Positions 20,493-64,000 are shown, counted from the stretch's first letter. The stretch: DNA of 64,000 bases from Nemertoderma westbladi (GCA_032718475.1 JAUCBJ010006660.1:41379-105378); one strand, 5' to 3'. Made by a program: numbers and translations. Notes: generated by a model from the sequence alone, not told the origin.

Positions 20493-20570
20493 CTGTTTAG
20501 AGTATTTACATATATTAGAAACTGTGATTTTGTATATTTTATAGACTCAAATCCCATTTTCTGGGAGCGG

Positions 20571-37250: not shown

Positions 37251-37319
37251 ATAACAGTTATTGTCTTTATTGCAGTAAGCAATAAAGTTGAAAGTACCGG
37301 TCGACCGGTAAACCTGAAC

Positions 37320-37548
37320 CGGTACTGCTGTAGGTCCGTAGGCCCAACTGCCAGAATCGGTACTGCTGTAGGTCCGTAGGCCCAACTGCCAGAATCGGTA
37401 CTGCTGTAGGTCCGTAGGCCCAACTGCTTGAACCGGTACTGCTGTAGGTCCGTAGGCCCAACTGCCAGAATCGGTACTGCTGTAGGTCTGTAGGCCTAAC
37501 TGCCTGAACCGGTACTGCTGTAGGTCTGTAGGCCCAACTGTCCTAACC
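37320..37548 (+). repeat. 38-bp tandem repeat in A2 leader, 6 copies
   Basis: Same unit as 10754-10905. Confidence 0.9.
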
Positions 37549-42600: not shown

Positions 42601-42919
42601 AAATGACACTGATCAAGAGTCTGAGATGGAAGGATTCTATACTGACGAATTCTCCGACGCCAACGAATCCTGTTACCTAATCAATACCGCGGTGTATCGA
42701 GCACTTACTTACGAAAAGGACACCGACAATGAGTTCCCCCCAACTACCTTTGACAGACAACCATCTTGGAAACCTCCAACTTCCAACGTAGGAATCAGAG
42801 AATTTCCTGTAGTGCAGGTAAGAGTTCACGGTCCTACCAAAAGTTACATAGTGAACGCCCTCCTTGACTCCGGCAGCACAGGAACATTCATCGATCAAGA
42901 ACTAGCCGAAGACATCTTT
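39632..42919 (+). CDS. gag: A2 Gag and N-terminal protease, open up to the B insertion
   Basis: 1118-aa ORF highly similar to A1; breaks at ELAEDIF shortly after the DSG catalytic motif. Confidence 0.9.
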
Positions 42920-44939
42920 TGTGACGGGATCTACGGATCCCGGTTTATCCGTTGGGTTTTCTATCCACGCGTCCCCGCCGTTGTGTGAAAGGTAAAATAG
43001 TTCTGGTGTCCGGTTATATGTATAAGGTATAATAGTCTGATATATATATAGTATAGTATGGCACAGTCACCGGTAGATAAGTATGATGGCGGTAGCGGAC
43101 AGTGATAGAAGTCACCGTTCCACCCTACTGAACTAACTGAGTAAACTGAATGAATATGATTACAGGTTACTGGTTATATTGCACGGTGGCCTTATTGCTA
43201 CTCAATCGATGCCTTTCCCCCCTCTGATTGGTTAATACCCCTGTTGGCACCCTTTGGAGTGTTTCCCTTCACTCCCTGTGTTCTCTCTCGGTTAGGGGTT
43301 TGGCCCCTGACCCCTATTGTGTGTGTCTCCTTTGGGGCCTATTGTCCCCGTTTACTGGGCTGACACGAGGTTGATTGGTAATCAACCTCGTGCTCCCAAT
43401 ATTGCTTTATGGCTCACTCTATGGGTTTGTGTTAGCGGAATTGGATAAGCTAACACTCCCCCCCATGCTATCTTCCCGGTGAGAAGATAGCATCCAACCA
43501 AAGTGCGCTACAATTCCGCTGGATCCCGATCTAACATCGGGTGTGGGGTGGGTATATTTTTTCGGAGTCGGCTTTCCAGGCCGCTCCCTATGGGTATGAT
43601 GTCACTACCCTCTGGCGTCTCGTGTCGGGCCGATCGTGCGCTTCTCTCACACAATTTTTGTTTCCCCAACACTCTCACCACTCTACTCCAACTCTCGCAT
43701 ACTCCCGGACCTCCTCGTCCCACACTCTTCCTCTCACTTCTCCTCCCCCACACTTGAATTGCGCCCACGCTCTCTTCGCACTCCGCACTATTACTCCATC
43801 CCTCCTTGACTACCTTATCCCTTCTGACGAATCTCACCCCCCCTCCGTGCCGTCGCACTCAGGAAATGTGAAATCGTCTGGCGTCTTGTCCCTAGTGCCA
43901 TAGTCACTTAGCCCCCCAGTCCCAGTAGCTAATTGAGAAAGGTTGTATGACTATAGTACTTACACCACTATCTCCGCACTCCGCACTATCACCTCTCCAC
44001 TCTCTTGTCACTCCCTAAGGCTTTAATCTCTAATGCTACCCCTGTGCTATCATACTATCTACCTACTGCTTACTAACTCTAACTATCTAACTAACTCTGC
44101 TAACTACTAACTCTTACTACTTCTAGCTCTAACTGAGAGCCTCTAACTTTCTACTGACTCTAACTCTCTACTAAGTCTAACTAACTCCTACTAACTTTCT
44201 ACTTCTACTAACTCTACTTGACTCCTCTGAGTCTACCAACTCTGCTAACTAGCTCTACTAACTCTACTCCACTAGCTCTGCTAACTCTACTCCACTAGCT
44301 CTGCTAACTCTACTAACTAGCTCTACTAACTCTACTCCACTCTTCTAACTACGTGGCGCTTGCGGTGCCCACAACCACTCTACTATATGGCACCCTATGT
44401 GCCCTCTCTGCTCTACTCTACTACCTGGCACCCTATGTGCCCTCTCTACTACACTACTACCTCTCTACCTCTACTACCTGGCACCCTATGTGCCCTCTCT
44501 ACTCTTCTACTACCTGGCACCCAATGTGCCCGTCTCTACTGCTCTACTCCCCCTTTACGTCTCATCGCCTACACGTGACGCTCTGAGTGCCGGCAGAGTG
44601 GGTACGTTAATTATGTGAACTACTACTGACTCTACTAACTCTACTAACTCTCTTCTAACTCTACTAACTCTTTTTGTGTCCGGCACCTCTTGTGCCCGGC
44701 ACCTTCTAACTCTACTAACTCTTTTTGTGCCCGGCACCTCTTGTGCCCGGCACCTTCTAACTCTACTAACCTCCTTTTGTGCCCGGCACCTCTTGTGCCC
44801 GGCACCCACCCTAATTAACATACCCTGCTCTTACATCAAACACCTCATCACGCCCGTGCCCCACTAAGTTCAGCGCATTCCCTACTAACTCTAACTACGT
44901 GGCGCTTCCGGTGCCCACAACCCTTCTACTGCTACTACT

Positions 44940-45675
44940 AACACTCCTAACTAGCGGTACTACGTACCCTCTTACTACTCTAGCTCTCTCTACTAGCTAG
45001 CGGTACAACGTACCCTCTTACTACTCTAGCTCTCTCTACTAGCTAGCGGTACTACGTACCCTCTTACTCTTACTCTTACTAACTCTCTCTACTCTTACTA
45101 ACCGGTACTACGTACCTTCTAACTCTTACTCTTACTAACTCTCTAACGGTACTGCGTACCCTCTAACTCTAACTCTAACTAGCGGTACTACGTACCCTCT
45201 AACTCTAACTCTAACTAGCGGTACTACGTACCCTCTAACTCTAACTAACTCTAGGTACTACGTACCCTCTAACTCTTACTCTAACTAGCGGTATTACGTA
45301 CCCTCTAACTCTTACTCTAACTAGCGGTACTACGTACCCTCTCACTACTCCAACTCCACTAACTGACGCTACTACGTACCCTCTAACTCTTACTCGAACT
45401 AGCGGTACTTACGTACCCTCTAACTCTAACTAACTAGCGGTACTCACGTACCCTCTAACTCTCTTCTACTAACGGTACTACACGTACCCTCCTACTAACT
45501 CTTCTACTAACGGTACTACACGTACCCTCCTACTAACTCTTCTACTAACGGTACTACACGTACCCTCCTACTAACCCTTCTACTAACGGTACTACACGTA
45601 CCCTCCTACTAACTCTTCTACTAACGGTACTACGTACCCTCTAACTCTTGCTCTCTAACGGTACTACGTACCACC
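44940..45675. repeat. Tandem array of ggtactacgtacc cores separated by ctaact-type spacers in the 3' region of B
   Basis: About 19 units of 30-45 bp such as ctagcggtactacgtaccctctaactctaact. Confidence 0.9.
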
Positions 45676-45741
45676 CTTTAACTAACTAACTAACTCTTAC
45701 TACCTAACTTCTACCTACTCTATTATTTAATTATTTTTTAA

Positions 45742-47526
45742 TTAAATAATTATTTTATATTTTGTGCGTGGGAAGGGCGTCTCGCCCTCATTCCCACCCC
45801 CCTCAGTCCAAAACTTTGGACGACTAAAAACTCTCAGGTGCCCCTTCTTCCAGTAGGCACTCTCCTGCTGCCCTCCTATACGTCCTCTAACTCTTCGCCA
45901 CACTCTCTTCGGTGCCACCTTTGCTGGCCTCCCCCTTCGTATGTGCGCTGGCATTAGAGCCCTCGACGACCCCCGCTCGTCCCTCGGTATACGCGGTGTC
46001 TGCCCATGTAATGCCCCCTCGCACTGTGTCCGTCCTGCGTGTGTATGCAACACGCCTCCTTCTACTTTCCCGACTCCTTTATGTTTGCTAATGGGCTTCT
46101 CTGCCCCTGGTTTAGTCCTTTCATATCCTCTCCCTTTCCAACACTCTCCGGATCTGTGTCCTTTTACCACACATCGATGACATAGTCCGTTTGCGTCTGT
46201 GTAGGCTACACGATCTCGTTTGGGCAACGCTTGCCAGTACTTGCAACTCCTGGTCTTATGGGTTCCGTCCCGATGTAATTGACATTGGAATCCTGGATTA
46301 TAGCGTTTCCTGTATAGTCCTTCACGTATCGCGCTTAGGTTTATATGTACCGATTTAATGTTTTGGTTGTCTAGACTCGGCCTACTGGGTATATTGGGAT
46401 TGTGTTTATTTTTGGTGTTATTTTCTTTCTGTTCCTGCCACGGTGTGGCCCTGCTACCAGCTAACTGTGGACTAGCAGTCCCCTGTATGGCCGCGTGTGG
46501 TATCGACTGTCCGCACGACCTTCTCTCGTCCAAGGGGTCCGATGTTCTTGCTCCTATTGGGGTATATTGTTGATATTGTGATGGGGGAATGTCACCCTGT
46601 CCCCCCCCAGCCGGTATGTTTGGTACTGGGGTTGATGTTAATGTATTGGGGCCCATACATCTATCTCCAATAACTCTCCCCTCCCCTGGATATATGTTAT
46701 GTCCCTGTGTATTATAGTCATGCTGCTGTACCGATATAGGCCTACCCACTTCTTGCCTACCTACCGGTATGTACTCCGCGGCTCCTGGGTTTAACCCCGT
46801 CGCTCGCGCTACCCCATCGCCTACTCTATCCCTCCCAGCATGGCCTATAATAGTATGTGCAGTAAGGCCTACAGTATGTCCTGCAGTCTGCATGTGCCCT
46901 TTCGAACCGAAGTTTAATCTTCGCGAATCTCGAATCTCCCGGCGACTACCGCACTCTCGATCGGCAGCTATATCCCGTCGGGAAGCTTCTCTCCGATCCC
47001 CTCTCCTGTTCTCGACTCTGTATTGGTACGTCTTGTACCCCTCTCTTGGCGTCCGGTGCGTTTCTCCGGGGCGACGGCAATCTCCCGAAGTTCGACCCCA
47101 CTGGCTCCCTGACTCCATCTCTACTATCGACGGTTCGTTATCCGTCCTCGCACTCCTATCATTCGTGGCGACACTTCTTCTACTATCTTCTCTTCTTCTC
47201 TTTTCTGTGTAGTATTCCGGCTCGTGAGGTCTCTCGTCGACCTCCCGGTTAAACTCCACTCTTCTTCCTCCCTCTTCTAATCGGGCTCGACGCTTCGTCT
47301 GCCCTCTCGCGACGTCAACCTGCCTCTCTCTACTCGATCGCACGCCGCTGGGGATACTCGCAATCCCCCTATTACTCTCCGTCGCCGGGTGTTGCGGTTT
47401 ACCTAGCTCGGCCCGCGCATTATCCGCTGACGGCTGTGGGACACTCTCTGCCCCCCCCTCTCTCTCCACTAACTTCTCGCGGTGGGGTGTCGGTAGCCCC
47501 CCCCCACCCGCCACTTCTAACTTCAC
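45742..47526 (-). CDS. B gag-derived ORF, C-terminal part with zinc-knuckle-like motifs
   Basis: CQLHRDGTHKTRSC and CHRCVVKGHRSGEC; homologous to C gag pieces. Confidence 0.6.
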   Translation of the reverse strand: MKLEVAGGGGLPTPHREKLVEREGGAESVPQPSADNARAELGKPQHPATESNRGIASIPSGVRSSRERQVDVARGQTKRRARLEEGGRRVEFNREVDERPHEPEYYTEKRRREDSRRSVATNDRSARTDNEPSIVEMESGSQWGRTSGDCRRPGETHRTPREGYKTYQYRVENRRGDRREASRRDIAADRECGSRREIRDSRRLNFGSKGHMQTAGHTVGLTAHTIIGHAGRDRVGDGVARATGLNPGAAEYIPVGRQEVGRPISVQQHDYNTQGHNIYPGEGRVIGDRCMGPNTLTSTPVPNIPAGGGQGDIPPSQYQQYTPIGARTSDPLDERRSCGQSIPHAAIQGTASPQLAGSRATPWQEQKENNTKNKHNPNIPSRPSLDNQNIKSVHINLSAIREGLYRKRYNPGFQCQLHRDGTHKTRSCKYWQALPKRDRVAYTDANGLCHRCVVKGHRSGECWKGRGYERTKPGAEKPISKHKGVGKVEGGVLHTHAGRTQCEGALHGQTPRIPRDERGSSRALMPAHIRRGRPAKVAPKRVWRRVRGRIGGQQESAYWKKGHLRVFSRPKFWTEGGGNEGETPFPRTKYKIII

Positions 47527-49423
47527 TATTTCTTACTATACCCCTCTTGTGGGGCATTCTCTGCCCCCCCTCTCTCGCCACTAATCTTATGTGGTGGGGC
47601 GCCGGCAGCCCCCCCCCCCACTCGCCACATCTAACTTCACTATCTCTCACTTCGTCTCTACACCCCTCTCTAGTCGACGCACTGTCTCTACTACGGCTGG
47701 GTCTATTCACCCCCGCCTCTCTCTCTACTACTGCGTGGCCCATCAGGCCTACTTCGGGTTGGCTCAACCCCGCTTCCCCCTGCCTACCAACTACGTGGCC
47801 TACCAGGCCGCCGTGGGGTTGGCTCAACCCTGCCACCTCCTGCCTACTAACTACGTGGCCTACCAGGCCACCGTCTGCCGGGTTATGTACGTCCGACACG
47901 CTCATATTAATAGCACCATTCCCAATATTATTTGTTAAATCAATTAAATTATTAGAATTTGAAACGGGATTATTATTTAAATTATTTAAATTACTTAGAT
48001 CACTACTATTCTCTAAACTTAAATTATTATTCGAATTATTTTTCGGGTTTGAATTGAAATTATTATTTAGAGTATTTGTATTTAAATTTAAATTACTACT
48101 ACCCGGTAAAATATTATTTCCTGTAATAAAGGGATTAGGGTTATTTACTACGGTACTATTAACATTAACTGTCTCTAACGTACTACTACTACACCCCCCG
48201 CCCGTACGGCTACACCAGTTCTGGCTCTCTCGCCCGGTGCCTGTAAGTGGGGGCTCCCTCTCTGATATTTTCAACCGCGACAGTTCTAGTCGGCGCTGTT
48301 TTAGTTTGGCCCGATATTGCACAAACTTCCCTATCCGGGCACACAAATCATCCCGCTCACGCTCACCCTCTATTTCTCTCTCTCTGCACTCTCGTATGTT
48401 TCGCTCGGCCGTCTCTCTCGCAAGCATCTCAGATCGACTCGCCGCCCAATCTCTACGCTCCTCGGCTCCCTTTCTATCCTCCCTTGTCCGCTCTAAAGAT
48501 GCGATTTTATCCCTCAGTCGCCACTCTAACTGTCTCTGCTCCCACGCCGCCTCTTCTATTTTAAACATCAGTTTTACCTTCCACACCCCTCTTTCTTTTG
48601 CGGAGGATGTAGCAGACTTATCGGTTGCGACGGACTCCCGTCGCCCCTCCGTCCTACCAACTTTCCCCCGCCTCCCGGAACTTCCTCCGACCGACGAGAC
48701 CGAATCCTCGGGTTTAGCCTCGGATTCGCCCTCCTCAGGTCTCTTCCAACCCACTAATTTTGCTCCCCGGGCATCGACTAAGTATGGCCCTATGTACACT
48801 ACACTAGGCTCCATACCCCCACATTCCCATAGTTCAAACAGTCCGAAGGCAACTCCCCACGCCCTCTCCTCGGCTAGTTCTCTCTGCCCAGAACACACTA
48901 GGTGATCAAGGTATCTGTTCGACTCACCTAGTCGTCTCCTCAGTCTCACCTCGTCTATCTTCGCCCCCTCCTTGGCCTCCTTTAGTAGTTCCCGGGTTGC
49001 GTTGTAGGCCCGTCGAAGTCGATCAGAAACCCCGACGTCCTCGTCGCCGACCTCTCCTCTGTCTCTCCGGGTCCGACGTCGTACCGGCGGCTCCACCGTT
49101 GCCGTTCCGGTGGGCCGTCCGTCGCCCTCGGCCTGTGGCGGGCCAGCGACATCGGTACGTCGACCCTCGCTCCGCGTCGACTCGTCTTTCTCTTCTCCTC
49201 TCGACTCGATCTCTCTACTCGACTCGCTCTCTCCTGGTAGACGACCCCCCACATCTTGGTTCGCCGTGTTGCTCGTTATCGACGTGGCGTCAACCTGCGT
49301 CGACGTGGTCGGCGTAGCATCGACCGGCGTCGTGGGTTCGTATCGTCTCGCCGTGGCCTCGCGGATCGTTAGGTCTCCGTCCGGGGTGCGCGGCGGTGTC
49401 GTTCCTCTCTCTCGACTCATCAT
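47420..49423 (-). CDS. B gag-derived ORF, N-terminal part (charged coiled-coil, Asn-rich tract)
   Basis: 667-aa ORF homologous to C 62968-63396 (SDRLRRAYNAT..LLKEAKEG); overlaps the next ORF across poly-G runs. Confidence 0.6.
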   Translation of the reverse strand: MMSRERGTTPPRTPDGDLTIREATARRYEPTTPVDATPTTSTQVDATSITSNTANQDVGGRLPGESESSREIESRGEEKDESTRSEGRRTDVAGPPQAEGDGRPTGTATVEPPVRRRTRRDRGEVGDEDVGVSDRLRRAYNATRELLKEAKEGAKIDEVRLRRRLGESNRYLDHLVCSGQRELAEERAWGVAFGLFELWECGGMEPSVVYIGPYLVDARGAKLVGWKRPEEGESEAKPEDSVSSVGGSSGRRGKVGRTEGRRESVATDKSATSSAKERGVWKVKLMFKIEEAAWEQRQLEWRLRDKIASLERTREDRKGAEERRDWAASRSEMLARETAERNIRECREREIEGERERDDLCARIGKFVQYRAKLKQRRLELSRLKISEREPPLTGTGRESQNWCSRTGGGCSSSTLETVNVNSTVVNNPNPFITGNNILPGSSNLNLNTNTLNNNFNSNPKNNSNNNLSLENSSDLSNLNNLNNNPVSNSNNLIDLTNNIGNGAINMSVSDVHNPADGGLVGHVVSRQEVAGLSQPHGGLVGHVVGRQGEAGLSQPEVGLMGHAVVEREAGVNRPSRSRDSASTREGCRDEVRDSEVRCGEWGGGLPAPHHIRLVAREGGQRMPHKRGIVRNSEVRSGGWGGATDTPPREVSGERGGGRECPTAVSG

Positions 49424-50086
49424 CGTCTTTGGTGTCTGGCAGCCACAGTCTGTCAGTTGGTTCGATCTAGTTCTATCACTGTCAGACTGTTAGGGCAGCT
49501 GCTAGGATTCTATCTCTGTCAGGGCAGCTGGGCGGATCTGATTCTATCACTGTGACGGGATCTACGGATCCCGGTTTATCCGTTGGGTTTTCTATCCACG
49601 CGTCCCCGCCGTTGTGTGAAAGGTAAAATAGTTCTGGTGTCCGGTTATATGTATAAGGTATAATAGTCTGATATATATATAGTATAGTATGGCACAGTCA
49701 CCGGTAGATAAGTATGATGGCGGTAGCGGACGGTGATAGAAGTCACCGTTCCACCCTACTGAACTAACTGAGTAAACTGAATGAATATGATTACAGGTTA
49801 CTGGTTATATTGCACAGTGGCCTTATTGCTACTCAATCGATGCCTTTCCCCCCTCTGATTGGTTAATACCCCTGTTGGCACCCTTTGGAGTGTTTCCCTT
49901 CACTCCCTGTGTTCTCTCTCGGTTAGGGGTTTGGCCCCTGACCCCTATTGTGTGTGTCTCCTTTGGGGCCTATTGTCCCCGTTTACTGGGCTGACACGAG
50001 GTTGATTGGTAATCAACCTCGTGCTCCCAATATTGCTTTATGGCTCACTCTATGGGTTAGTGTTAGCGGAATTGGATAAGCTAACA

Positions 50087-50945
50087 TCTTTGCTGGACAA
50101 CCCAAATTCCAAACTAAGTTGAATATGTCCGGAATTATGCAGGTTTGGAAATCTACCATAACGGCAGATTACTATGTAGCTGTGCGTTGTCCACCCCCCA
50201 GGATAAATCAGGAGCACAAAGTATAAGGTCAGTAAAAATGGTGGCTATAAAGAACTTCGCTACTACCCAAGTAGAACCTTATAACTGGGACGAGGACGAG
50301 AGCATCCAACAGCTTAAGATACCTCGATTCCAGACAGATTATCCTGGAGTGCAAATACTCATCGGCCAAAACGCGCATGAGGCGCTCGAGACATTGGAGA
50401 AACGGCCTGCTCAACCGCAGCCACTACAAACCTATGCGGTAAGAACTAGAGTAGGTTGGTACTTCACTGGCCCTTCCCGTAGAACTCTCAAAGAGAGATT
50501 ACCTCAACAACAGGTATACCAAGTAAAGGAATGGGAAGTGGAGAGCAGTGATGTGGACGATCCAACTGAGGGAACACCATACTCCTCAGATAATGACGAT
50601 ATTAACTCCAATGTAGATCAATGGAGACATTGCCTTGGGACGATTAATCCAGCCGACATCGCTTCCAGAGGAGCAACTCCTCAAGAACTGATAGATACTC
50701 CAGGCTGGTTAGGTGGATCCGACTTCTTAAGTAAAGAAGAAGAAGAATGGCCTCCTCATCTTACCACGGTGGAGATTAGACAGGCCAAGGGAGCGGAGAA
50801 AGTAACACAACAACTCAATCGCCCCGCTAGTCGTTTATGTTTACTGGAAAGAGACCGAAAACTGTCCGGAAACTATGGAAGGCAAGATACTCTTCCTACG
50901 AACACTTCCCTAATCCGACAAATATCTAGGGACTCCATAACGTAA
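50087..50945 (+). pseudogene. A2 protease C-terminus plus RNase H remnant, after the B insertion
   Basis: Matches A1 16210-17066; extra frameshift near 50180. Confidence 0.85.
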
Positions 50946-52574
50946 TAACATATGGAGTGGGCGTGTGACTATATCATTTTATATTTGTTTTTATTTTATA
51001 TTTATGTATGTATTATTATGTAATTTTATTATAATCGTTTCCTTTAATTTTATTTAGTAGAATGTTATTTTAGTGATTATTTAGTAGATTAGTGCAATAT
51101 ATTAGTGTTTATTACGTACGTAATTACTTATAATATATTTAGTGCGACGGCGAGAAATAATTATTTTTTCTCTTTCCTTACTGTCCATATCATATTATAA
51201 ATACGTGACTACAGTAAGATGAAATGTCCGTACTTATTAAAGTACAATAAAGCTCCTACTATACTTAAGTATTATTGGTAGGCAGAGTATTAGGAATGCA
51301 AAGTTCAGATCCTCGTGTCTCGGCTAAACCAAGCTCTGGGTAGACCTTGGAAACGACTTGCCTCTTCACACTGACATTGCTTCGTGCGATATTGCTCTTC
51401 TACGTTATATTAAATAATACATATAGTAGCGTGATGTCCCTATAACAGTAGCGTAAAACGCAAATAAATCTGTTAAACCTTTTGACCATCTGTAATTCTA
51501 GTCGATTAAGATATCGCGGCACCCACCGATATACTTGAAAGACAAATTCTAGAATCAGTGGTTAACGTCCCCAGACAAGTTCTGGAATAAATCGGTGCCC
51601 ATCTTAAATATTAATTTAATATTTATTAAAATCTGTAAAATTCAGATCCTTTAAAATTTCTAGTCAATTAAGATATCGCAGCACTTACCGATACTCTTAA
51701 AGGACAATTTTATAGAATTAAGGATCCTCAGTCCCCAGACATGCTCTGGAATAAAAATTGTGTCAATTTTAACATCAAATAATAAAATTCACAGGAATAA
51801 ATTTAAATTCATATTTTAAATGAATTTATTAAACTGTCATTTTTATACAATTTATAACATTCCCAAAATTCCATTAATTAATAGATCATGGGAGCGGAGA
51901 TTCATCCTATTGAGTGTATTAGAGTGCGAGAATCTCCAACATATAGTCAATAGCCGATAAAATTAATAAAATCATGCATAAAGAGGATATTGACAATTAA
52001 AGAATTACTATTAAATAGCATTCCAGATCTGTATGCATGAGAATTACCCTAATTCTACCGCTAGCTTTCCATAATGTCACCATAGCAACACCCACGCTAG
52101 AATTAGAAGCAAGTTAAAAGAACAATAGAAAGCTTGTCCCATTGCATAGCATAGAGAATACATAGCACACTGTTAGTATCCAAGGATACACAATAATAAC
52201 GTGACATTCTGGAAGGCACTGACTAACGGACAAATGGCTTGTATGTGTACAATTGGTGACAGTTGTGTGGAATTTGTGCGTTTACAGGTGAATGTTACTG
52301 CTAAAGTATGTTTACAGTAGCTAGTCGCAATTGTGAAAGTAGCCCAACTCTCCTATAGAAAGAACCTAAAGTGGATTCAAGCCTTTGGGACGGACAGTGG
52401 AGTGACTTGTGCCGGTTATCGTTGTCGTGCTGTTGCTACATGTTGGCGTAAACACCGCGACGACGATACATCGGCGCTGAGAATCCCACTGTCCGGGGGC
52501 AAAGAAGGTAGGCAGCGACGCCCGCTCGCCTAAACATAAACTCATTATAATATTAATCAACCCAAATAGCAGAT

Positions 52575-53570
52575 ATGACGGAGTTGATAGAAGATGATCT
52601 TGGTATCAGGGAGCGATATACTCTAACTTTACAAGCATTTGTGGATAGCTTGATACGCGGTGAAGCCGATCCAACCATTACGGAGGACGATGGTCGTTAT
52701 ATCGAACCGCCGCTGTCCCAAGAGCAACTTACGCGTGAATTGGACTATCGAAAATTCACCGCTCGCTATACGCATCGTAATGGTACGTATATGGACTTCT
52801 TAACTACCGGCCATCCTATCGATTTACATGATACGGACGATGTAGACACCGAAAGGGAAATGGTTCTATTTGGATATCATACCCGGCGGAGTCGTAACGA
52901 TAGGCCGAGAATAGAACACGAAAATTCTATTTGTAATAGACTGGAAAGAGAAAACGTTGAAGAACCGGATAAACGCATCGACTTCAACAAATACCTAGAA
53001 TTTTTGAGAGAAACCTATCTCAACATCGCCAGTCAGCAGAACCTAGAGACTCGATATCCTCAAGGTATACATCATGACCCTATGGTAGAACTCAAACGGC
53101 TCTATTTCACTATGATGTATCTTACCGCCGCTCGTCCACTACCTGTTATCCCGGATAGTTTTGAACAAATGGAAGAATATTGCGGAGCTGGAGAACGATC
53201 ACCCGCGTTTCCTCTACAGGACGTACGTCTTTGGCATTGTTGTGACGAATGCCCTAGACCCAACCAACAAACTGAAAGACATAAACATCCGCGGAGACGT
53301 TGCGCTAAACATAATTTTACGCGTTATACTTACGGGAGTTTCGAGCGAAACCTGTTCGACCTATCACCTACGATCGCTCGTCTTAAACGATCACTAAATA
53401 AACCCATGATCAGAGTTCCGGAATACTCGGTCAGGCCTCCTCGTTTCCCAGTGAGACTTCGGACTCTTGGTCCTGGCAGTATCACTGATCCTCCCGAACT
53501 ATATTCGCTGTTCCTATTTCCACGAAAAACCGGCGATGGAAATTTATTGTGCATATTGCAGACTCAATAA
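52575..53570 (+). CDS. A2 accessory ORF2, 331 aa, function unknown
   Basis: Intact ORF; acidic N-terminal half; WHCCDECPRP..HKHPRRRCAKH Cys/His cluster; no transmembrane segment. Confidence 0.7.
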   Translation: MTELIEDDLGIRERYTLTLQAFVDSLIRGEADPTITEDDGRYIEPPLSQEQLTRELDYRKFTARYTHRNGTYMDFLTTGHPIDLHDTDDVDTEREMVLFGYHTRRSRNDRPRIEHENSICNRLERENVEEPDKRIDFNKYLEFLRETYLNIASQQNLETRYPQGIHHDPMVELKRLYFTMMYLTAARPLPVIPDSFEQMEEYCGAGERSPAFPLQDVRLWHCCDECPRPNQQTERHKHPRRRCAKHNFTRYTYGSFERNLFDLSPTIARLKRSLNKPMIRVPEYSVRPPRFPVRLRTLGPGSITDPPELYSLFLFPRKTGDGNLLCILQTQ

Positions 53571-54384
53571 CTTGCACATTTTTGCGGTTTGCCCTCAATT
53601 TATGACTCAATGTCACCATTGTCAACTAAAGGGACACGCCAGTTTCGATTGCCCTTTTAATCACGATTTGGAAAGCGTAGATGAAATGATTACACTACGT
53701 TACATCAGAGCTTGGGAAGCGAACACTGATTTACATTGTGATTCGCGCCATCGTTATTATCCTGGACGCGCTTACGAAGGAGTTTATGCGTTCCATCCTT
53801 ATCTATTAGCTTCTGTCGAACAGAAATCACGCATATCGAGTTACGAGCTACTGAAGCGCGTTGGAGAATGTATTTCAACCAAGTTCGTACGCAAATTTCT
53901 CAGGAGTGTTAATCCTAGCGACCTTCATTCCTATAACTTAATCAATTATATCCGTCAGGATCCGGACTATGGAGACTTATTTGTTAACTCACACCCCGAG
54001 TTACAGGAAGTGTATCGACGACCTTACGAATACCGAGCCCACGAACGCGAGTTGGAAAGAACCATTAAACCCAGGAGGTTTCTGACTGCCTATGGTCCAC
54101 CCACGGCTCTCGTTCAGACCACTCGTAAAGGACCCGTCAGAGCGGCTGTCCTAAAACGTGCTCTCAAGGCCGTTAGACCCCTCTCCCCAGACGTTGATGT
54201 CAATCAACCCGGCACTTCGACTGGCGGATACACCGACCATAATCCTACACCCTCTGATGCAATCATATTGCACCCTTCACCCATGAGTTATAGCCCTCCT
54301 TGTAAAGTGGCTCGCCCCAAAGAGAAAAAGACTCTGGCCAGCTTTAAAAAACTGCGTAAACGCCGTCCGCGCAAGAAAGACTAA
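53536..54384 (+). CDS. A2 accessory ORF3, 282 aa, zinc knuckles and basic tail
   Basis: Same length as the A1 copy with many synonymous differences; KKLRKRRPRKKD. Confidence 0.75.
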   Translation: MEIYCAYCRLNNLHIFAVCPQFMTQCHHCQLKGHASFDCPFNHDLESVDEMITLRYIRAWEANTDLHCDSRHRYYPGRAYEGVYAFHPYLLASVEQKSRISSYELLKRVGECISTKFVRKFLRSVNPSDLHSYNLINYIRQDPDYGDLFVNSHPELQEVYRRPYEYRAHERELERTIKPRRFLTAYGPPTALVQTTRKGPVRAAVLKRALKAVRPLSPDVDVNQPGTSTGGYTDHNPTPSDAIILHPSPMSYSPPCKVARPKEKKTLASFKKLRKRRPRKKD

Positions 54385-54462
54385 CTGTTTAGAGTATTTA
54401 CGTATATTAGAAACTGTGATTTTTGTATATTTATAGACTCAAATCCCATTTTCTGGGAGCGG

Positions 54463-55690
54463 TGTAAAAGCTTTTGTGGGATGTAACTGGTCCTTTTGCT
54501 TTGCAATCCAGTTCCCCCCCCCCCAGGCGCTGGAATACTCTAAAAAGCTCTCTAACTCGAATGATGCAAAGCGACCGGCTGATTGGCTGATTTGTTATAC
54601 GAGGGGCTCTTTGCTATGTTCTATCGGCCAACCAGAGCTATAGCAGCAGAGTATGCAACCAGGGCAACCGAGCGGAGTGACTCATTTTGTGTGTTGGCCA
54701 AGGGCTGCAAAAATCCTGATAGTTCGGCATTTAGATATTCGTGGAACCTGTGGAATCTGGTGTTCTGCCAATGAGAGCTATCCCTCTCTGTGTAAAAAGA
54801 TACCTGCAACGGTGTTAGAGTCAGAGAGTGTTTTTGTTACTGTTGTGTTGTTTCTATCTAGGCCAGGAACACCGGCTCTAGAGTCAATTCGTTTCAGACT
54901 TTAGAAGAAACATTAGTAGGCTTAGATTATAGAGCGTATAACTGTTATCGGCTCAATCGGCACATACATTGTCATATCATATCTTAACCTACCGTCTTAA
55001 TGCTTTTACTGTTGTTATTATTTTGTATCAGTTGGTTGAATATTATTTGGAGAACATCTATAAAGAACCCAAATTTCCCAATTTTCTTGATACACTACAG
55101 GTTAGAGAGACAGGTTACATATAGCGATTGCGACTTATATTATCGTGGTTTGTAGTGAGTTTAATGCTATTTGATAGGCACTACATGAGTCAATTGCTGT
55201 TCTCTTTATGTATGATAAAATTCATTGACGGTCGGCAGATTAGTGAGCAGTATTGTGTGTTACCGGTAGTGTGCATGATTGTGGCTGATAACTAAGCATT
55301 TCCTAAAGAATGCGCCTCATACGTGAATCATAAGCCTTACCAACTTACCGTTGTGTTTAGTACAAGTCATATCTCTGTTTACCTAGATAGAGCGCCACGT
55401 CCTAAAGGAACTGTTAATATTTCCCGAAAGTGAATAATATTGGTCAGAAATTATTTATTAACGGTCAATCGAATAATACAGTAAGCTTACACTGCAATAA
55501 CAATCTAAGCCCTCCGAATCCAGTCTCCCGGGTATATCCAGCGGGTGAATGGACGCGCACTAGGCTGGCTTCGGCTAATGTTGTGTTTATTGGTATTAAA
55601 TACTTGTCATTTTCTAAAGTCTATTTATAAACCAAAAGACATATAAATTTTGGCAGGTTAAACTGCTAAAGGTCTTCAAAAGCGCGTACA
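54463..55690 (+). repeat. A2 3' LTR
   Basis: Direct repeat of 36025-37250, followed by TSD agtcc. Confidence 0.95.
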
Positions 55691-55695
55691 AGTCC

Positions 55696-56090
55696 ATTCC
55701 CACTATGATGGATACCTTCCGGACGTCCACTTCCGGTATCGAGAAATCGATCTCGTCCAGGAATCTGTATTGCTTGACCTCGATGTTAGTGGGTCGCCTG
55801 GCATTTATATTAATCGATTCTATAATCTGAATGGGGTCGATGGTCGCCCCATAGTTACATCCCGGTGCTATTGCTGATATCTCGCACCGTCCCGTCCTCA
55901 CCTCCAGGATCTCATCCGTGCTGGAGATAGTAGTTACCGCCATCCTGCTCGGCCTCGCCTGTAACCTTATATCCTCGGCCACCCAATTCTCCACCAATGT
56001 GAAGGCTGCTCCGCTGTCGACCAGCATCAACGTCGTAACTGATCAACCACTTTCTCCCATCACCCTCACCGGTACCACCCCGAGTAGTAC
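55696..56090 (-). pseudogene. Aspartic protease of element C, interrupted by A2
   Basis: LVDSGAAFTLV...VSIIVGMD; continues below 36024. Confidence 0.8.
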
Positions 56091-56967
56091 CGTTCCCCTT
56101 CTCTTCGCTCCTACGGTGCTTGTCGCCATCGTTTGGCCTTTGCCTTGACCGAATTTTGTGTCTCCTTACATTGCTTAGCCTTGTGTCCGCCCGCCACACA
56201 TCAATGACAGATTCCACTTTTATTCGCGTATTCTACCTGGTCTTGTTTGGGTAATGCTTGCCAATATCTGCAGTTCATGGTCTGAGGAAGTGCGTTCGAG
56301 TGTAGTTGGCATTTGTTTCTCGGATTATAGCCTTCCCTATACAGCGCGCTGCGTATCGCACGTATATTCATACTTAGCTCTCTACTGTTCTTATTATTTG
56401 GGTTTGGTCTACTGGGCGTGTTGGGGTTATATTTATTTGTGTTGTTAATTTTTCCCTGTCCATGCCATGGTGTGGCCCTACCCCTGGCTATCTGTGGACT
56501 AGCAGTCCCCTGTGTCGTCGCGTATGGTAGCGATTGTCTCAGCTTTGGTAATGCATTTGCCGCACTATGTTCTGGTTTTGGCCTGTTATATTCGGTCTTC
56601 AGTGCCCTCCCCAGACTATCCTCGCTGTAGACTGGGTCCGTGATCAACTCTGCTTCATAATTGAGGAAGTTCGACATTTCCTCTAGGCCCGGTTCCGCAC
56701 CTTTCTTCTCCCGGGTGGAGAAGGCGATCTTCCTCCATTTGTTCCTTAGCCAGATTGGCAGTGCCTGCGCTATCGTGGTAATGTTATTCGATGCATTGAG
56801 TTCGTATGGCGCATCCAAGGTCTTTAGCACGATCAGCGCCTTCTCGACCTTATTCGCGAAAGTCTTTATACTAACTAACTAACTATACTATCTTTATACT
56901 AACAGGGTTATCCTGTAGGCCACCCGATGTTATTCCCCTCAAGGTCTGCCGGATGATCTTGGCTGGG

Positions 56968-58151
56968 TGTTTGCGCGTTTAGACCTTTAGCAGTTTAACC
57001 TGCCAATTTTAGTTGTCCTTTTGTTTATAAATCGACTTTAGCCTTTTACCAATTACTTAGTGTCCTGAAGTTACATCAGCCGAAGCCAGTCCGTATGCGG
57101 CGTATGACCCACGGTGTGGGAGACTGGATTCGGATTCCTTGGGAAGTATTGCAGTGTAGACCTACTGTATTATTCGATTGATTGCTACTATATAATCTCT
57201 GACAACTATATTTACTTTCGGGGAAATATTAACAGTTCCTTTAGGACATGGCGCTTTAAGTATAAAAACAGAGTTATGACTTATACTAATCACAACTAGA
57301 TGGCCACAGAGTTTCGTAAATAGCGCATTCTTTAGCAGATGCTTTATTAACCTTCACACTACTTCACACGACTTCACACTACTTCACACTACTTTACACT
57401 AGTTTGCACTAATCTGCCGACCATCACTGAATTTGATCATATATAAGGAGGATCGCAACTGACACATGTAGGGATTATGAAATAGCATTTAATTCACACA
57501 AAACCACTATATTTTAAGTCGCAGTTGCTACCGGTAAACTCTATTCCTCTTACCTCAGTAATCAAGAAGATTGAGGGGTTTATGATTATTTATCGATATT
57601 CTCCAAATATAACATCAATATCCATTAATATAACAACAATTAATACTATAAAACAGAAGTAAAATAATGCGGTGAACAGTCAGCATGTGTTACTTATGCA
57701 GTTATGAAATGTGCAAAATGTTCAGTAATATGCAATCAGTGATTCAGAGTGTATCCAGTCATATGAGTTGATGTTACGATGCGGTGATTCAGTTAATAGT
57801 TTTACGTTCTTATAACCAAGGCTATCTGATGTTCCTAGGCCAAAGTCTGAAACTTCCGCACAGAAGCACAGAAATTCTGAGTTGGTTCTGATGCTCAGAA
57901 AATAGTAAACAAAGACCGTAATGCATTGCGCGAGTTTCTATAGGTTTCTATTAGCCGTAAAGTGAAAATTGCTCTGATTGGCTGAATAAGACAGAACAAA
58001 GAACTTCCACGTCCACAAAGAATCAGCTGACAGATTTCGTCATCTTGGTTCTAATTCCTTCCCGTCGCGTAATTGGATAAATTTAGGGCTATTTTAGAGT
58101 ATTCTGCGCATTGCGTAAAAATGACTTGTTATGTCCGCAAAAGCTTTTACA
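56968..58151 (-). mobile_element. Solo LTR D, 1184 bp, diverged relative of the A LTR, inserted in C gag
   Basis: Minus strand tgtaaaagcttttgc...ggcaggttaaactgctaaaggtc..aaaca; TSD ctggg on both sides; splits EYGHP|AKIIRQ. Confidence 0.9.
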
Positions 58152-59585
58152 CTGGGTGTCCGTATTCCTTGTCTAGGGCCCGCCATGCAGTCGTGAATCC
58201 ACCCTCGATGCCTTGATCCTGCCTCACGATATCGTACGCTGGGCCCCCTGTGTGAACCTGTAAATATTTTAGGCACTCCGCCTGCGTCAGATTCTTAGTT
58301 AATATTTCATTACTGTACATGTGTCGGAATTGCAGGTATTCTTCCGGTCTGCTTCCATCGAATTTAAATGGCTCCACTGGTGGCAGCTCGATCCTGGTCT
58401 TAAGCGCATCTATGAGTGTTGCCATTCCCATCGCCTGTGCTTCCAATGGGTTCGACGGATGCTGTACAGACTCTCCCGTTGTTGGGTGCGGTTCGCCTGT
58501 CGGGCCTGTCGATCTTTTCTGTTTCGGATATATCATTGGGGGTAACGGCCCCCTCCATATCTCTGTATCGCATGATCTATTCTGGTCCGAGGGGTTTGGG
58601 GTTTTTGTTCTCGGTAGAGTGTATTGCTGATATTGTAATGAGGGAATGTCACCCTGCCCCCCCCCCCCCCCTCCCCACTGGTGTTATATTTGGTACTGGG
58701 GTTGATGTTAATATATTGGGGCCCACACACCTATCTGCAATAACTCCCCCCTCCCCTGGGGTATATGTTATATCCCTGCATATTACAGTATTATAGTCAT
58801 ACTGGTGTGCAGGTACCGGTATAGGCCTATCTACTTCTTGCCTACCTACCGGTATGTACGCCGCGACTTCCAGATCTAATCCCATTGTTCGCGCTACCCT
58901 ATTGCCTACACCATCTCTTCCAACATGGCCTATAGTATGTGCAGTAAGGCCTACAGTATGTCCTGCAGTCTGCCTGTGTCCCTCTGGACCGGAGTTTAAT
59001 CTTCTCGAATATTCCAAGAAGTCCTCCCCTCGCCCACCGTACTCTCGATCGGCAGCTATATCCTGTCGGGAAGTTTCTCTTCAATCCCCTCTTCTGTCCT
59101 CGTCCTCGTACCGGTACATCCTGTACTCTTCTCCCGGTGTGCGGTATATCTCACCAGGCTGCGTCTCTCCGGGGCGACAGCAATCTCCCGGAGTTCGACC
59201 CCACTGACTCTCTAACTCCATCTCTGCCACCGACGGTTCGCTGTCCATCCTCGCTCTCCGGTTGCTCGTAGCAACGCTTATTCTATTCTCTTCACTTCTT
59301 CTCTCTTCAGTGTAGCGATTCTGCTCATGAGATCTCTCTTCGACCTCCCGGTTAAACTCCACTGTTCTTCTTCCGTCTTCCGACTGGGCTCGTCGCTCGC
59401 CCACTCACGGCGTCAACCTCTCTCTCTCTACCCGGTTGGACGCTCCTGGGGATAATCGCAATCCCCCTACTATTCACCGTCGTTGGGTGCCACGGTTCAC
59501 CTAACTCACCCCGCGCACCATCCACCGACGCCTGTTGGACATTCTCTGCCCCCCCCCCCCCCCCTCGCCACTAATCTCTCACGAA

Positions 59586-61371
59586 TTCCGACTTCTAATA
59601 GTGAAAAAAAGTTGTGGACCAATGAAATAAGACTCTAGTACAAAAAAAATTAAAAAAAAAATTTCATCTTTAGGTTCCCCCAGCTCCTTCAAATTTCAAA
59701 AATTTCCAAAATTTCGAAAAAAATCACAATCTTAAAAAATTAAATTTTCCGACTTCTAATAGTGAAAAAAAGTTGTGGACCAATGAAATAAGACTCTAGT
59801 ACAAAAGAAATTAAAAAAAAATTTCTTCTTTAGGTTCCCCCAGCTCCTTCAAATTTAAAAAAATTCCAAAATTTCGAAAAAATTCACAATGTTAAAAAAT
59901 TAAATTTTATTTCTTGTAATACTGTAATAGCTGTTAAAAGTGCTGCTGAAACACAAAATAAATTGTAACAATAAATTTGGACAATCAGTGAGTGTCTATG
60001 AGCTTCCCACAATGCTGTCAATGTTTAGCAAAATGTCAATTATTTCATAGATTAAAATCTATTTAGTTTAGCTAGGAAGCGATTGAGTTATCTGTTTAAT
60101 TGTAGTGCGGGATCTTGATGACCATTCATCCTTTATAACACCTTAAAGTCAGATTTCTTGTTGAATTCTTTCATTGTTGCTCTCGCAACGTTTCTGGACC
60201 GGATAAATCGGTCTCGCTCCTGAGGACCACAAACAGATGAAGAAGCTTCTGTGACGTGTTTCACACAGCGCTCAACCGCTTGTGTATGACATGGAAGTGA
60301 CGAGAACTTCTCCTTTGTAATGATATGGAGTTCTGATTCTGGAATATCTTTGGTGAGAGGCGGCTCTGTCCGAAATTCGTTGCCCAAACTTGTCCAATAA
60401 ACAATTTCCGTGTAGTCCATTGCCGCAAAGTTGACTGGTGGAACAATAAACTCACGAATCCCAGATTTATGAGACTCTTGTACTCTTCGAGCTTTGAGAA
60501 TGCGACGGACAGCCAGTTCTTTAATATGAATTCGTTCATCGACAAGCATTGAAACTAATACATATTTTCTGGATGACAGAAGTAGGTATTGCGTTGGACA
60601 GTAGAGTGAATCACATTCTTATAGTCTGTAGGAAGATAGGCTGAGCGTTGTATGATATTAAATATGTGCTTTGGTCCATCCAGAATCGAATTATTTGTCT
60701 TTATATGAAACCAGGTTGTTGCGTAAACATTTATTACAAATGTTGCTAAGACAGAAAGGTTCTCATCTGTATTGATACAGTAGTAGTAGAAACATTATTC
60801 TATTGGCAGTGGTGAGCCACCTGGAGTGAACTAGTTTGCCTGGATTAGATTCAGACAATGCAGCAGATACTTAACCAGATACAACAGATTTGCACATCTG
60901 CAAAAGGTATTTCTGATCAGAACTGAGATCCTTCGAATCAACCTCACTGAGTCTGTGTGAGATTAAACCATTTTAATTTAAAGACCGAATTTATATCAAA
61001 AGTCTTAAAAATATTAACAAATGAGACAATTTGTTTACATTTAAATTTCACTTACTTTCTTTTATTTGTCTATAAATATTATTAATCAATATTAATAAAA
61101 AAAATCAGACATAATCCAGCCTATATGGTGTATTCTCACATTTGGAAAGTCATTCTCATTGAACATTTCTATTGGAATATAATTTAACAACAGGTTTCAA
61201 CTGGCAATCTGCAAGAGCCCGCCCAATTGGTCCACTATAACTCTTGGGTCCAGTTGTGGGACCATCTATAAACTCAAATAAATGCCGTAGCAACAGCTCA
61301 TTGCCATGCAGCAAACAAATTACCCATTGGAGAGGATGGTGTAGCCGCTCCTCGCAACACCGAACACCCTA
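59586..61371 (-). mobile_element. hAT-superfamily (hATm-like) transposon fragment inserted in C gag; one end missing
   Basis: Minus-strand end tagggtgttcgg; PGKLVHSRWLTTANRI and PCHTQAVERCVKHVTEAS..RDRFIR; 161-bp tandem duplication 59586-59907. Confidence 0.65.
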
Positions 61372-61381
61372 GTGTCCGTAG

Positions 61382-61412
<31 letters not shown>

Positions 61413-63503
61413 ATTCGCCACTTCTTACTTCACTACCTCCTACTTCGCTTCTACGCCCCTCTCTAGTCGACGCACTATCTCTACTCCGGCTGGGTCTGCT
61501 CACCCCTGCCTCTCCCTGTGTGACTGCGTGGCCTGTGCAGGCTCCCGTTCGGGTTGACTCACCCCCGCTACTCCCTGCCTAACTACTTGGCCTTGCAGGC
61601 TCCCGTTGGGGTGACTCACCCCCGCTGCTCCCTGCATAACTGCGTGACCTTGCAGGCTCTCGCTGGTCTGACCACCTGTGTCCCCTACATTCGTATTAAT
61701 AGCACCGTTATCAATAATATTGTTATCTAAATTATTTAAATTATTTTGTTCAGAGTTAGGGCTATTATTTGGAATATTTTGTATAATTAAATTAGAATTA
61801 TTTGGATTATTTTGTCCGTTCAAATTAATATTATTTGGATTATTTTGTACGTTTAAATTAATATTATCTGGATTATTTCTATACGTTTAAATTGGTATTA
61901 TTTGGATTATTTTGTACATTTGAATCAAAATTATTATCACCGGGTAAAATATTATTTCCTGCAACAAAAGTTTGATTAGGGTTGTCTACTACGGTACTAT
62001 TAATATTAATCCCTTCTAACGTACTATTATTACCCCCCCCCCCCCCCCCCACCCTTACGGTTACACCAGTCCTGGGTCTGTCGTCCGGTGCCTGTAAGTG
62101 GGGTGTTAACAAACATTTCCATTACTTCTGGCTCCTCGTAAACACTACCCGAACCAGCCTCACTCTCCGATAATCCCAACTTCGCCAGTTCTAACCGGCG
62201 CTTTTGCTTCGCCTGGTATTGCATAAGCCCCCTCAGCCGGGTATGCATATCATCCCGCATACGCTTTCCCGCTCTCTCTCTGTCCTCTCTCAAACTCTGG
62301 TTGACCAATTCTGCCTCCCTCGCCTCCCGCTCTCTATGCTCGTTCGTTTCTCTCTCGACCCTCGCTACCTCTCTCGCCCCTTGCTCTCTACGCTCGCTCT
62401 CTACTTTCGCCTCTCGCTCTTTGCGCTCGTTCTCCACTTTCGCCTCTCGCTCTTTGCGCTCGTTCTCCACTTTCGCCTGTTGCTCTTTGCGCTCGTTCTC
62501 TATTTTCGCCTCCCGCTCCTCGCGCTCTTTCTCTACTTTCGCCTCCCGCTCCTCGCGCTCTTTCTCTACTTTCGCCTCCCGCTCCTCGCGCTCTTTACGC
62601 TCACTCATCTCTCTTTCTTCCCGCTCCCTGCAGTTTCTCGCCACCTTCTCGGCTCTCCCTCTACATTCCCTCGCTAACTCTCTCTCTTTCTCTAATAACG
62701 CGGTTCCCTCGTCCAGTTGCCTCTCCAACTCCTGCTGATCCAGCGCCACAAGGTCTAGTTGACACGCCAGATCTATCTCTAACACCCTTCTTGCTTTTGC
62801 GGAGGATGTAGCGGACTTATCGGTTCTCGACGGACTCCCGTCGCCTCTCTGTCCTACTAACTTTCCCCCGCTTTCTGGGGTTCTCGCTGACCGACGACAC
62901 CGAATCCTCGGGGTTAACCTCGGGTTCGCCGTCGTGCGGGTCCGCCCAACCCACTAACTTAATTCCCCTAGCATCCACTAAGTAAGGCCCTACCTACGTA
63001 CACTACCTCAGGCTCCATTACCCCGGACCGCCACAATTCAAACAGTTCCGTGGCGACCCCCCTCGCTCTCTCACTCGCCAGTTCTCCCTGTCCAAAACGG
63101 ACTAAATATCGAAATTGTTTATTCGACTCACCTAGCCTCTGATGTAGTTTAGGCTGGTCTACCTTTCTCCCTTCCTTGGCCTCCTTAAGCAGTTTCTTGG
63201 TGGCGTTGTAGGCCCGTCGTAGCCGATCACTCGTCCCGACATCCTCTTCACCGACTCTGCCTCCTGTCCTCGTCCGGCGTCGTACCAGCGGCCCCACCGT
63301 CGCCGTTCCGGTGGGCCGTCCGTCGCCCTCGGCCTGTGGCTGGCCGGCGACTTTGGTATTGCGTGTCGTACCGTCTCCCCGTGCGGCGTCGCTCATCTCT
63401 CCCTCGTGGATCCGGCGCCCTCCTGTGATCGGCCGCTCATTTTCTTTCTCGCTGTTTTGTCTGCAGTCACAGTTTATTTAGTTGGCAGGTGGAAGTTAAT
63501 GAC

Positions 63504-64000
63504 TGTGACGGGATCGGAGATCCCGACCGGGTTAGAAATGTACTCGTCACCATTCTGCTGAGCAGGCGTGTCACTCGCTTTGGCCGAAGGCCGTTGGGGA
63601 AAACAATAAGAGTTTGGGTTGTTTCTCGTTATTGATTAACATGGGCGATAATAACACGTTGATACTGATAAATGAATATAGCAGAAAATACAAGTTAATT
63701 GTTACCGGTATAGCGGTGGCGGTCATTAACTATGACCGGTCTGCACTGACTGAATAACTCAACTGACCGGTAAAACCAGTAATGTAGGATAATATATGAT
63801 TGATCACACATTGAATATTGGTTTCACCTCCTACTGTACTTTGGCCCTCTACCCAATGGATGCTTTCCTGCTCCTTATCACGTGCTTCCCTCCCCACTAT
63901 TGGCTAATATACTAATTGTCACTTTGGCACTCCCTGCGAGTGTTTCCCCTCCGACTGCTAGCCTCTACTAGCTGTCTTCCCTCCGAGGTGGTTTGACCTC
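63504..64000 (-). repeat. 5' LTR of element C, runs off the window
   Basis: Starts tgtgacgggatc like the B LTR and shares gatgc(c/t)ttc and gagtgtttccc blocks. Confidence 0.8.

Follow-up and report, generated by a model that had tools for sequence, protein, structure and literature searches.

Complementarity of the primer-binding site to the element's own long terminal repeat suggests tRNA-independent self-priming in BEL/Pao-derived retrotransposons of Nemertoderma westbladi

Nested retrotransposons of the locus

A stretch of 64,000 nucleotides of Nemertoderma westbladi DNA (GCA_032718475.1, JAUCBJ010006660.1:41379-105378), called the window below, carries three retrotransposon families of the long terminal repeat (LTR) type, designated A, B and C. 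In each of them the primer-binding site (PBS), which immediately follows the 5' LTR, is exactly complementary to a segment of the element's own LTR (the anti-PBS), which suggests that these elements are primed by their own RNA and not by a tRNA. The elements form a nest of four levels, in which B lies within A2, A2 lies within C, and a solo LTR related to A (A') is also inserted in C (Table 1). Target duplications of 5 bp are present for A1, A2, A' and B. In A1, A2 and B, a purine tract precedes the 3' LTR and the two LTRs are more than 99% identical; the pairs differ by only 4, 6 and 3 bases (3 in B), and the insertions are therefore young. The solo LTR A' has diverged at the anti-PBS position, and its PBS lies outside the window. 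No 3' LTR of C was found within the window.

The proteins of the elements point to their affiliation. The Gag of A contains a DUF1759 domain (Pfam, E about 2e-12), and the four protein matches of A are all full BEL/Pao polyproteins carrying the BEL/Pao Peptidase_A17 domain PF05380. The Gag of C also matches DUF1759 (E 8e-5, under the curated cut-off), and its Gag and protease pieces match BEL/Pao loci with E values down to 2e-10 and 5e-17, respectively, in small local sets. In B, the only BEL/Pao-like region is the zinc-knuckle region, which matches P0027 (E 4e-6, small local set), and the Gag-like protein shares 53% identity with the Gag piece of C. No Pfam match to a reverse transcriptase (RT) or an integrase was obtained in the scanned open reading frames (ORFs) of A, B and C, of RNase H only a tail motif is retained in A, and neither RNase H, RT nor integrase was found in the internal ORFs of B; the three elements would thus all depend on a helper element. 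A, B and C are defective, non-autonomous BEL/Pao-derived LTR retrotransposons. They resemble the Belpaoviridae profile of the ICTV, the international committee for virus taxonomy, in their LTRs of 0.5-1.2 kb, polypurine tract, BEL/Pao-type Gag, protease and RNase H tail, but they lack the 18-nt tRNA PBS of that profile, and no RT or integrase was found in them (PMC8742986); they are therefore filed as non-autonomous derivatives rather than as full BEL/Pao members. A viral sequence collection yielded no BEL/Pao relatives.

Table 1. Positions of the retrotransposons of the window and of their priming-related features
Feature	Position	Strand	Remarks
B PBS	49542-49550	-	GTGATAGAA; immediately after LTR end, no TGG
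B anti-PBS	49733-49741	-	TTCTATCAC; predicted primer 3' end
C PBS	63494-63503	-	GTCATTAACT; immediately after LTR end, no TGG
C anti-PBS	63722-63731	-	AGTTAATGAC; predicted primer 3' end
A1 PBS	10685-10695	+	11 nt
A1 anti-PBS	9927-9937	+	11 nt, then C
A2 PBS	37251-37261	+	
A2 anti-PBS	36498-36508	+	
B hairpin	49730-49749	-	predicted, 7 bp; anti-PBS in loop and 3' arm
C hairpin	63720-63738	-	predicted, 7 bp; anti-PBS in loop and 3' arm
B putative promoter	49775-49809	-	TATA-like (from 49809), TCAGTT initiator-like (A at 49778); spacing 31
C putative promoter	63761-63796	-	TATA-like (from 63796), TCAGTT initiator-like (A at 63764); spacing 32
B U5 hairpin	49556-49573	-	7-bp stem just before LTR end
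C U5 hairpin	63509-63525	-	7-bp stem; same stem as in B, different loop
B leader stretch complementary to LTR end	49442-49449	-	possible U5-leader stem, putative function
C leader stretch complementary to LTR end	63466-63473	-	U5-leader stem in predicted fold
Element A1	9457-21798	+	LTRs 9457-10684 and 20571-21798; target duplication GGGGT
A1 content		+	DUF1759 gag, protease-like region, RNase H tail remnant
Element A2	36025-55690	+	LTRs 36025-37250 and 54463-55690; target duplication AGTCC; inside C, carries B
Solo LTR A'	56968-58151	-	related to A, inserted in C; target duplication CCCAG
Element B	50086-42920	-	inside A2
B 5' LTR	49551-50086	-	536 bp, TG...CA; 533/536 bases identical to 3' LTR
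B 3' LTR	42920-43455	-	anti-PBS 43110-43102, then T rather than C
B target duplication	50087-50091 and 42915-42919		5 bp
B polypurine tract	43456-43464	-	
B internal ORFs	45742-49489	-	degenerate gag-like, C-related; zinc-knuckle region resembling BEL/Pao Gag
Element C	beyond 64000 to about 33930	-	interrupted by A' and A2; resumes at 36024 past A2
C 5' LTR	63504-64000	-	extends past window edge; only the 5' LTR end lies inside the window
C gag and protease-like pieces	55692-58683	-	weak DUF1759; interrupted by solo LTR A'

Complementarity between the PBS and the element's own LTR

The exact pairing between the post-LTR site and the element's own LTR extends over 9 nt in B, 10 nt in C and 11 nt in A, and in A the complement is also present in both 3' LTRs. 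Its start is the base immediately following the LTR, the place required for the primer end by the established logic of LTR formation. The probability of such matches was estimated by dinucleotide shuffling of each LTR and asking for the observed match length, which was reached in 3 of 2000 shuffles for the 5' LTR of B, 4 of 2000 for its 3' LTR, 2 of 2000 for C, 2 of 2000 for A1 and, for the 11-nt match of A2, 3 of 400. When arbitrary window positions were used as a null, matches of at least 9 nt occurred at about 0.007-0.008 and of at least 10 nt at 0.003. The original prediction, whose sequences and coordinates for B and C all proved correct, had put chance at about 0.002 or less per match, a value a little below the window null (0.003-0.008).

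The complementarity is specific to each element. Indeed, the PBSs of B and C differ at four of their first nine positions and each difference is compensated in the anti-PBS, as had been claimed, while the crossed pairs (B PBS with C LTR, C PBS with B LTR) match over 4 nt only; the 5' arm of the hairpin described below tracks at least one of these changes. The last 14 LTR bases and the first two PBS bases are common to B and C. These two elements are related and do not represent two independent origins. The homologous position of their anti-PBSs, also part of the original prediction, is supported by local anchors in a weak alignment, whereas the whole-LTR alignment is uninformative and misregisters the anti-PBS.

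In none of A, B and C does the trinucleotide TGG occur within the 40 nt that follow the LTR. Searches of the window with ARAGORN and Rfam gave neither a tRNA nor a member of another RNA family, and an element-encoded tRNA or known RNA family was thus discarded as the primer. A primer built by splicing was likewise discarded for A, B and C, in which no GT-AG junction outdoes the contiguous match. Possible very short GT...AG introns were seen just downstream of the anti-PBS in B (49701-49668, 34 nt) and C (63705-63665, 41 nt), both on the - strand and preceded by a shared TACCG.

The leaders of the elements have some further features. In the leader of A (10685-10760, + strand), a palindrome of 14 bp and tandem repeats of 38 bp may serve as a signal for dimerisation or packaging, and in that of B (49550-49470, - strand) a PBS-like word occurs three times, with repeats at 49514-49508 and 49477-49471; the third copy shows no pairing with the anti-PBS in folding. 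The PBS of A starts with ATAAC (10685-10689, + strand), as does the PBS of Tf1 in the available text of PMC11042837, which is probably a coincidence.

Self-complementary priming sites in BEL/Pao relatives

Relatives were sought by a BEL/Pao alignment search of metagenome contigs; the best 76 of at least 552 confirmed loci were retained, and the 53 with at least 500 nt upstream were scanned. Evidence of an LTR pair was present near the 3' end in nine loci, and the LTR end was fixed by the divergence of the two copies in six, all with a full BEL/Pao pol. In five of these six relatives, the PBS finds its complement in the own LTR, over 10-15 nt, only when a predicted GT-AG junction is taken as spliced (splice-form); such matches were reached in 0, 0, 0, 1 and 2 of 400 shuffles. 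TGG is present in the sixth, L054, which is tRNA-like, so that a tRNA-type PBS occurs in one of the six. The other three loci have guessed LTR ends: L018 is splice-form, with a 13-nt match across a 423-nt predicted intron; L075, also splice-form, failed a strict splice filter (90 of 400 shuffles) and passed a relaxed one (13 nt, 0 of 40); and in L034 the match is contiguous.

Own-LTR complementarity, which had been proposed as a trait to be followed across BEL/Pao and on an RT tree, was found in part of the 53 loci: 22 are splice-form (18 families after merging of near-identical pairs), one is contiguous and one is tRNA-like. When PBSs were compared with own and foreign LTRs, 22 of 23 showed a match of 9-15 nt to the own LTR, and at least 9 nt were matched in only 7 of 506 foreign pairs. 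Of the 18 splice-form families, 16 have a PBS with GT as its first two bases, and in 12 a C comes directly after the primer end; both traits are shared by B and C. Unanchored scans were weak, many true-looking matches being reached by 1-18 of 30-40 shuffles, and candidates of 10-13 nt in L037, L039, L061, L073 and L074, as well as second matches in L018, L043 and L049, were set aside by eye as likely chance.

In L034, C follows the contiguous 11-nt anti-PBS, which makes up the end of the loop and the 3' arm in a hairpin of 7 bp. On a tree of RT-RNase H sequences (73 of the 76 loci and three proteins), on which the splice-form loci are scattered, L034 groups with L033 and the splice-form L043/L044 (support 0.985), with which it shares its PBS start. 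In L022 and L029, TATATAAG was found 142 and 169 nt before the splice donor, a position from which the primer end would lie far from the cap. The LTRs of L029 and L036 apparently end in TA rather than CA, with pairing that starts 2-4 nt past the end, and in L022 the pairing sets in 3 nt past CA. Tandem elements or long direct repeats, possibly sharing an LTR, were observed in L044, L050, L067 and L075; Tf1 is described as forming tandems via a retained PBS in the part of PMC11042837 consulted.

Hairpin and putative promoter of B and C

As had been described, B and C each have a 7-bp hairpin with the anti-PBS in its loop and 3' arm, preceded by TATA-like and TCAGTT motifs. The distance from the initiator A to the predicted primer end is 46 nt in B and 43 nt in C; about 40 nt had first been given. 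The TATA-like and initiator-like labels follow the consensus of these motifs, whose spacing of 31 and 32 nt is conserved between the two elements. The masking hairpins of B, C and L034 have energies of -9.3 to -10.7 kcal/mol over 38 nt, and the best hairpin among the 18 splice-form families reaches -7.1 kcal/mol, spliced or unspliced. Furthermore, the leader stem listed in Table 1 overlaps the PBS and competes with the PBS duplex in C. The stem near the LTR end of B and C perhaps parallels a U5-IR-like structure of Tf1, which is reportedly named in the title of a 1998 paper by Lin and Levin.

Proposed priming mechanism

Judging from the sequences, tRNA-independent self-priming in some form is likely in A, B and C. 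This part of the original prediction is well supported by the missing TGG, the specificity for the own LTR and the recurrence in BEL/Pao relatives. With a probability of roughly 0.55, we further consider that B, C and A are primed in cis by a 5' piece of their own RNA, with a predicted length of about 43-46 nt in B and C; this length is suggested by the spacing of the TATA-like and initiator-like motifs and by analogy with the splice-form relatives.

The course that we infer would be as follows. Transcription would begin at the TCAGTT motif; in a particle built with helper Pol, the hairpin would open and the anti-PBS would pair with the PBS; helper RNase H would cleave just past the anti-PBS, as in Tf1, and the new 3' end would be extended from the LTR boundary. 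Later, copying of the primer back into the PBS would keep PBS and anti-PBS complementary within every lineage. The hairpin likely has the same role as the LTR intron in most relatives, namely to keep the anti-PBS off the PBS at times when it should be inactive. Such masking would matter most for the 3' LTR copy, since cleavage there would remove the site on which strand transfer lands. Since first-strand DNA would cover only what lies downstream of the cut, the anti-PBS and everything upstream of it in the new LTR would derive from the 3' copy, and an intron could therefore persist if only the 5' copy is spliced. A spliced 3' copy, once copied, would give the contiguous form, which probably arose by loss of the LTR intron; a contiguous anti-PBS in the 3' copy could misprime, which would be a reason for the hairpin. 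The hairpin recurs independently in L034; it may act as a switch in the primer, as originally predicted, or as a mask of the 3' LTR copy. Because B and C are related, L034 is separate and A has no hairpin of this kind, there are two independent cases for the hairpin idea and one against it.

Weighing of the proposed mechanism against its alternatives

Several points weigh against cis priming by a 43-46-nt piece of RNA, and the first of them comes from predicted folds, which bear also on the foremost alternative. According to this alternative, which appears unlikely, transcription would start at or next to the anti-PBS, as in Tf1, the primer would be the first 9-11 nt of the RNA, and the 5' arm of the hairpin would lie in U3, be present only in the 3' LTR copy and mask the anti-PBS there; the action of the hairpin on one copy only would thus be neatly explained. 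In C, the duplex probability is indeed 0.04 with the long 5' end and 0.94 with a start at the anti-PBS, and in L034 it is 0.0-0.77 and 1.0, respectively, whereas B prefers the long 5' end (0.86 versus 0.19). The originally predicted primer of about 40 nt, unlike that of Tf1, is favoured by the motif spacing, by the position of TATATAAG in L022 and L029 and by the fold of B, but not by that of C. With 9-11 nt, the matches are as long as the primer of Tf1 described in the accessible part of PMC7175516. Nevertheless, the TATA-like and initiator-like motifs of B and C, 31-32 nt apart, are located well upstream of the anti-PBS, and a start of this kind would force a first exon of 4-9 nt in the splice-form relatives. 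In A, no duplex was predicted with any of the three starts tried.

Further points of this kind concern the strength and the conservation of the structures. The isolated PBS/anti-PBS duplexes are weak (about -10 kcal/mol), the significance of the hairpins is modest when each is taken singly (28, 10 and 16 of 300 shuffles in B, C and L034, respectively), and nothing comparable is seen in A (221 and 37 of 300 shuffles). The pairing had been described as stopping at the LTR boundary and being followed by C; this is correct for the 5' LTR of B, but its 3' LTR has T at the site matching 49732, so that the pairing runs 3 nt into the LTR end and the rule holds for the 5' LTR only. This T is possibly a result of CpG decay. 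Variation within the B family was assessed with contigs from four public runs on the B LTR and leader (1788 from X1 and 694 from X3), for which summed depth does not equal copy number and the PBS-like leader repeats could misplace contigs. At PBS position 5 (49546), about 70% of summed depth in X1 and in X3 deviates from the window, as does about 65-68% at the hairpin-arm base 49745; the compensating site 49737 is not among the 40 of 78 variant rows listed. An uncompensated majority variant may thus exist in the B family and is the main risk for B. Among the relatives, 29 of the 53 loci were assigned to no form, many of them with little LTR on the contig, and the PBS position was located post hoc in most. 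Moreover, the Gag and protease of the window elements are only 20-30% identical to those of the relatives, and A, B and C, which lack RT, cannot be placed on the RT tree.

The pairing could alternatively be structural, with a function in packaging, dimerisation or translation, and a host RNA, e.g. a tRNA fragment without a CCA end, would then prime at the site. The ICTV profile, in which Belpaoviridae carry an 18-nt PBS for tRNA-Arg or tRNA-Gly and are primed by host tRNA (PMC8742986), would be in line with a host primer, as would the half-tRNA primers known in Ty1/copia lineages according to the available text of PMC6317226, and other conserved stems in the region would suit a structural role. 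The letters of the PBS, however, vary freely over about 20 families and track the own LTR rather than a small set of host RNAs, and the pairing begins at the LTR end or a few bases from it, which would not be required of a purely structural stem. We regard this explanation as improbable.

Priming in trans appears less probable still. In this case, a separate short LTR transcript (from a solo LTR, or an aborted or spliced RNA) would end at the anti-PBS and anneal to another genomic RNA, the template remaining uncut. A solo LTR (A') is present, a small stable RNA would be suited by the hairpin, and the retention of the intron in splice-form relatives would be explained; the transcript would nevertheless require an exact 3' end, for which no termination signal is visible, and pairing in cis across 180-220 nt is the simpler arrangement, with Tf1 as a precedent. 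Finally, chance or local repeats are hardly credible: a single 9-nt match occurs at about 0.7% of arbitrary window positions and the PBS of A is nearly palindromic, but all three window families and five of the six fixed-end relatives pair, compared with 7 of 506 foreign pairs.

Beyond the window, a broader proposal can be made tentatively, at somewhat less than even odds: a large branch of BEL/Pao would have dropped tRNA priming for a gated self-primer taken from inside the 5' RNA, with two interchangeable gates, an LTR intron or, after intron loss, a 7-bp hairpin, either of which would stop the 3' LTR copy from priming. The window elements would represent the hairpin form.

Comparison with known self-priming systems

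Self-priming in which the PBS pairs with the element's own LTR RNA is known in the Tf1/sushi group (accessible parts of PMC7175516, PMC4600332 and PMC5341516). As in Tf1/Tf2 of Schizosaccharomyces pombe, Tj1 and Tf1/sushi elements in general, the PBS of the window elements directly follows the 5' LTR and is complementary over about 11 nt to the own LTR RNA, apparently without use of a tRNA; indeed, the complementarity of the PBS to the own 5' LTR that characterises Tf1/sushi spans 9 nt in B, 10 nt in C and 11 nt in A. In Tf1, however, the primer consists of the first 11 nt of the RNA, with RNase H cutting between bases 11 and 12 (PMC7175516, in the part consulted), whereas the primer of B and C is predicted to end 43-46 nt after the start. 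Tf1/sushi belongs to the chromovirus lineage of Ty3/gypsy, and the window elements, with their DUF1759 Gag, are of BEL/Pao type and not members of that group; unlike Tf1, they need a helper Pol. The accounts of Tf1, in the sections available, mention no hairpin or intron over the primer. The cDNA of Tf1 often keeps the copied PBS (available text of PMC11042837), which provides a way for PBS and primer to stay matched.

Self-priming has also been predicted from an LTR/PBS complementarity of at least 10 bp located 0-5 bp after the LTR, and these predictions show that it arose more than once (PMC6317226, accessible sections). The elements concerned are from plant hosts and other superfamilies, and those sections mention neither a masking hairpin nor a splice-built primer. 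Altogether, self-priming is known or predicted for Tf1/sushi, Tj1, Tcn1 and TAR in the consulted portions of PMC4600332, PMC6934838, PMC6317226 and PMC5341516.

Other features of the window

Long AT/purine-rich tandem arrays are located in the 3' non-coding region of C (33988-34660) and B (44930-45720) and share a short palindromic core. An ORF (32287-33663, - strand) without a Pfam match adjoins the point where the similarity of C to B ends; it presumably resembles a Penelope-type reverse transcriptase. In A, extra ORFs to which no function is assigned occupy the place of pol (19025-20492 and 52557-54384, + strand), one of them with Cys/His clusters, and no Pfam match was obtained for the two extra ORFs of A2 that were scanned. 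A LINE-like RT element is present in three pieces (5816-6646 on the - strand, 1-544 and 21799-22687) that are mutually about 97% identical. An uninterrupted ORF of 698 amino acids (802-2898, - strand) encodes a sodium:neurotransmitter symporter (Pfam SNF, E 1e-96), an animal-type host gene.

Significance

The replication of Belpaoviridae is poorly understood according to the ICTV profile (PMC8742986). No paper on BEL/Pao self-priming or its hairpin was found in the literature searched, which did not extend to subscription journals, Repbase Reports and supplements. PBS, priming and tRNA are not mentioned in the BEL/Pao papers PMC554778 and PMC3118150, as far as their text was covered by term searches, and the available portions of PMC13524379, PMC8220671, PMC4558846 and PMC3601003 contain nothing on BEL/Pao self-priming. 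What is new is that the trait recurs over a large number of metagenome records, that a GT and C signature is shared, and that the hairpin form occurs beside the intron form on the tree; the possible replacement of the intron by the hairpin as a primer mask may be new too.

In summary, if this interpretation is true, many BEL/Pao elements would self-prime. To the origins in Tf1/sushi, Tcn1 and TAR this would add another independent one of a different design, in which an intron or a hairpin conceals an internal primer. The start of reverse transcription would thereby be linked to host splicing or RNA refolding, the survival of an LTR intron through copying of the RNA would be explained, and tools that demand a tRNA site would misjudge such elements.

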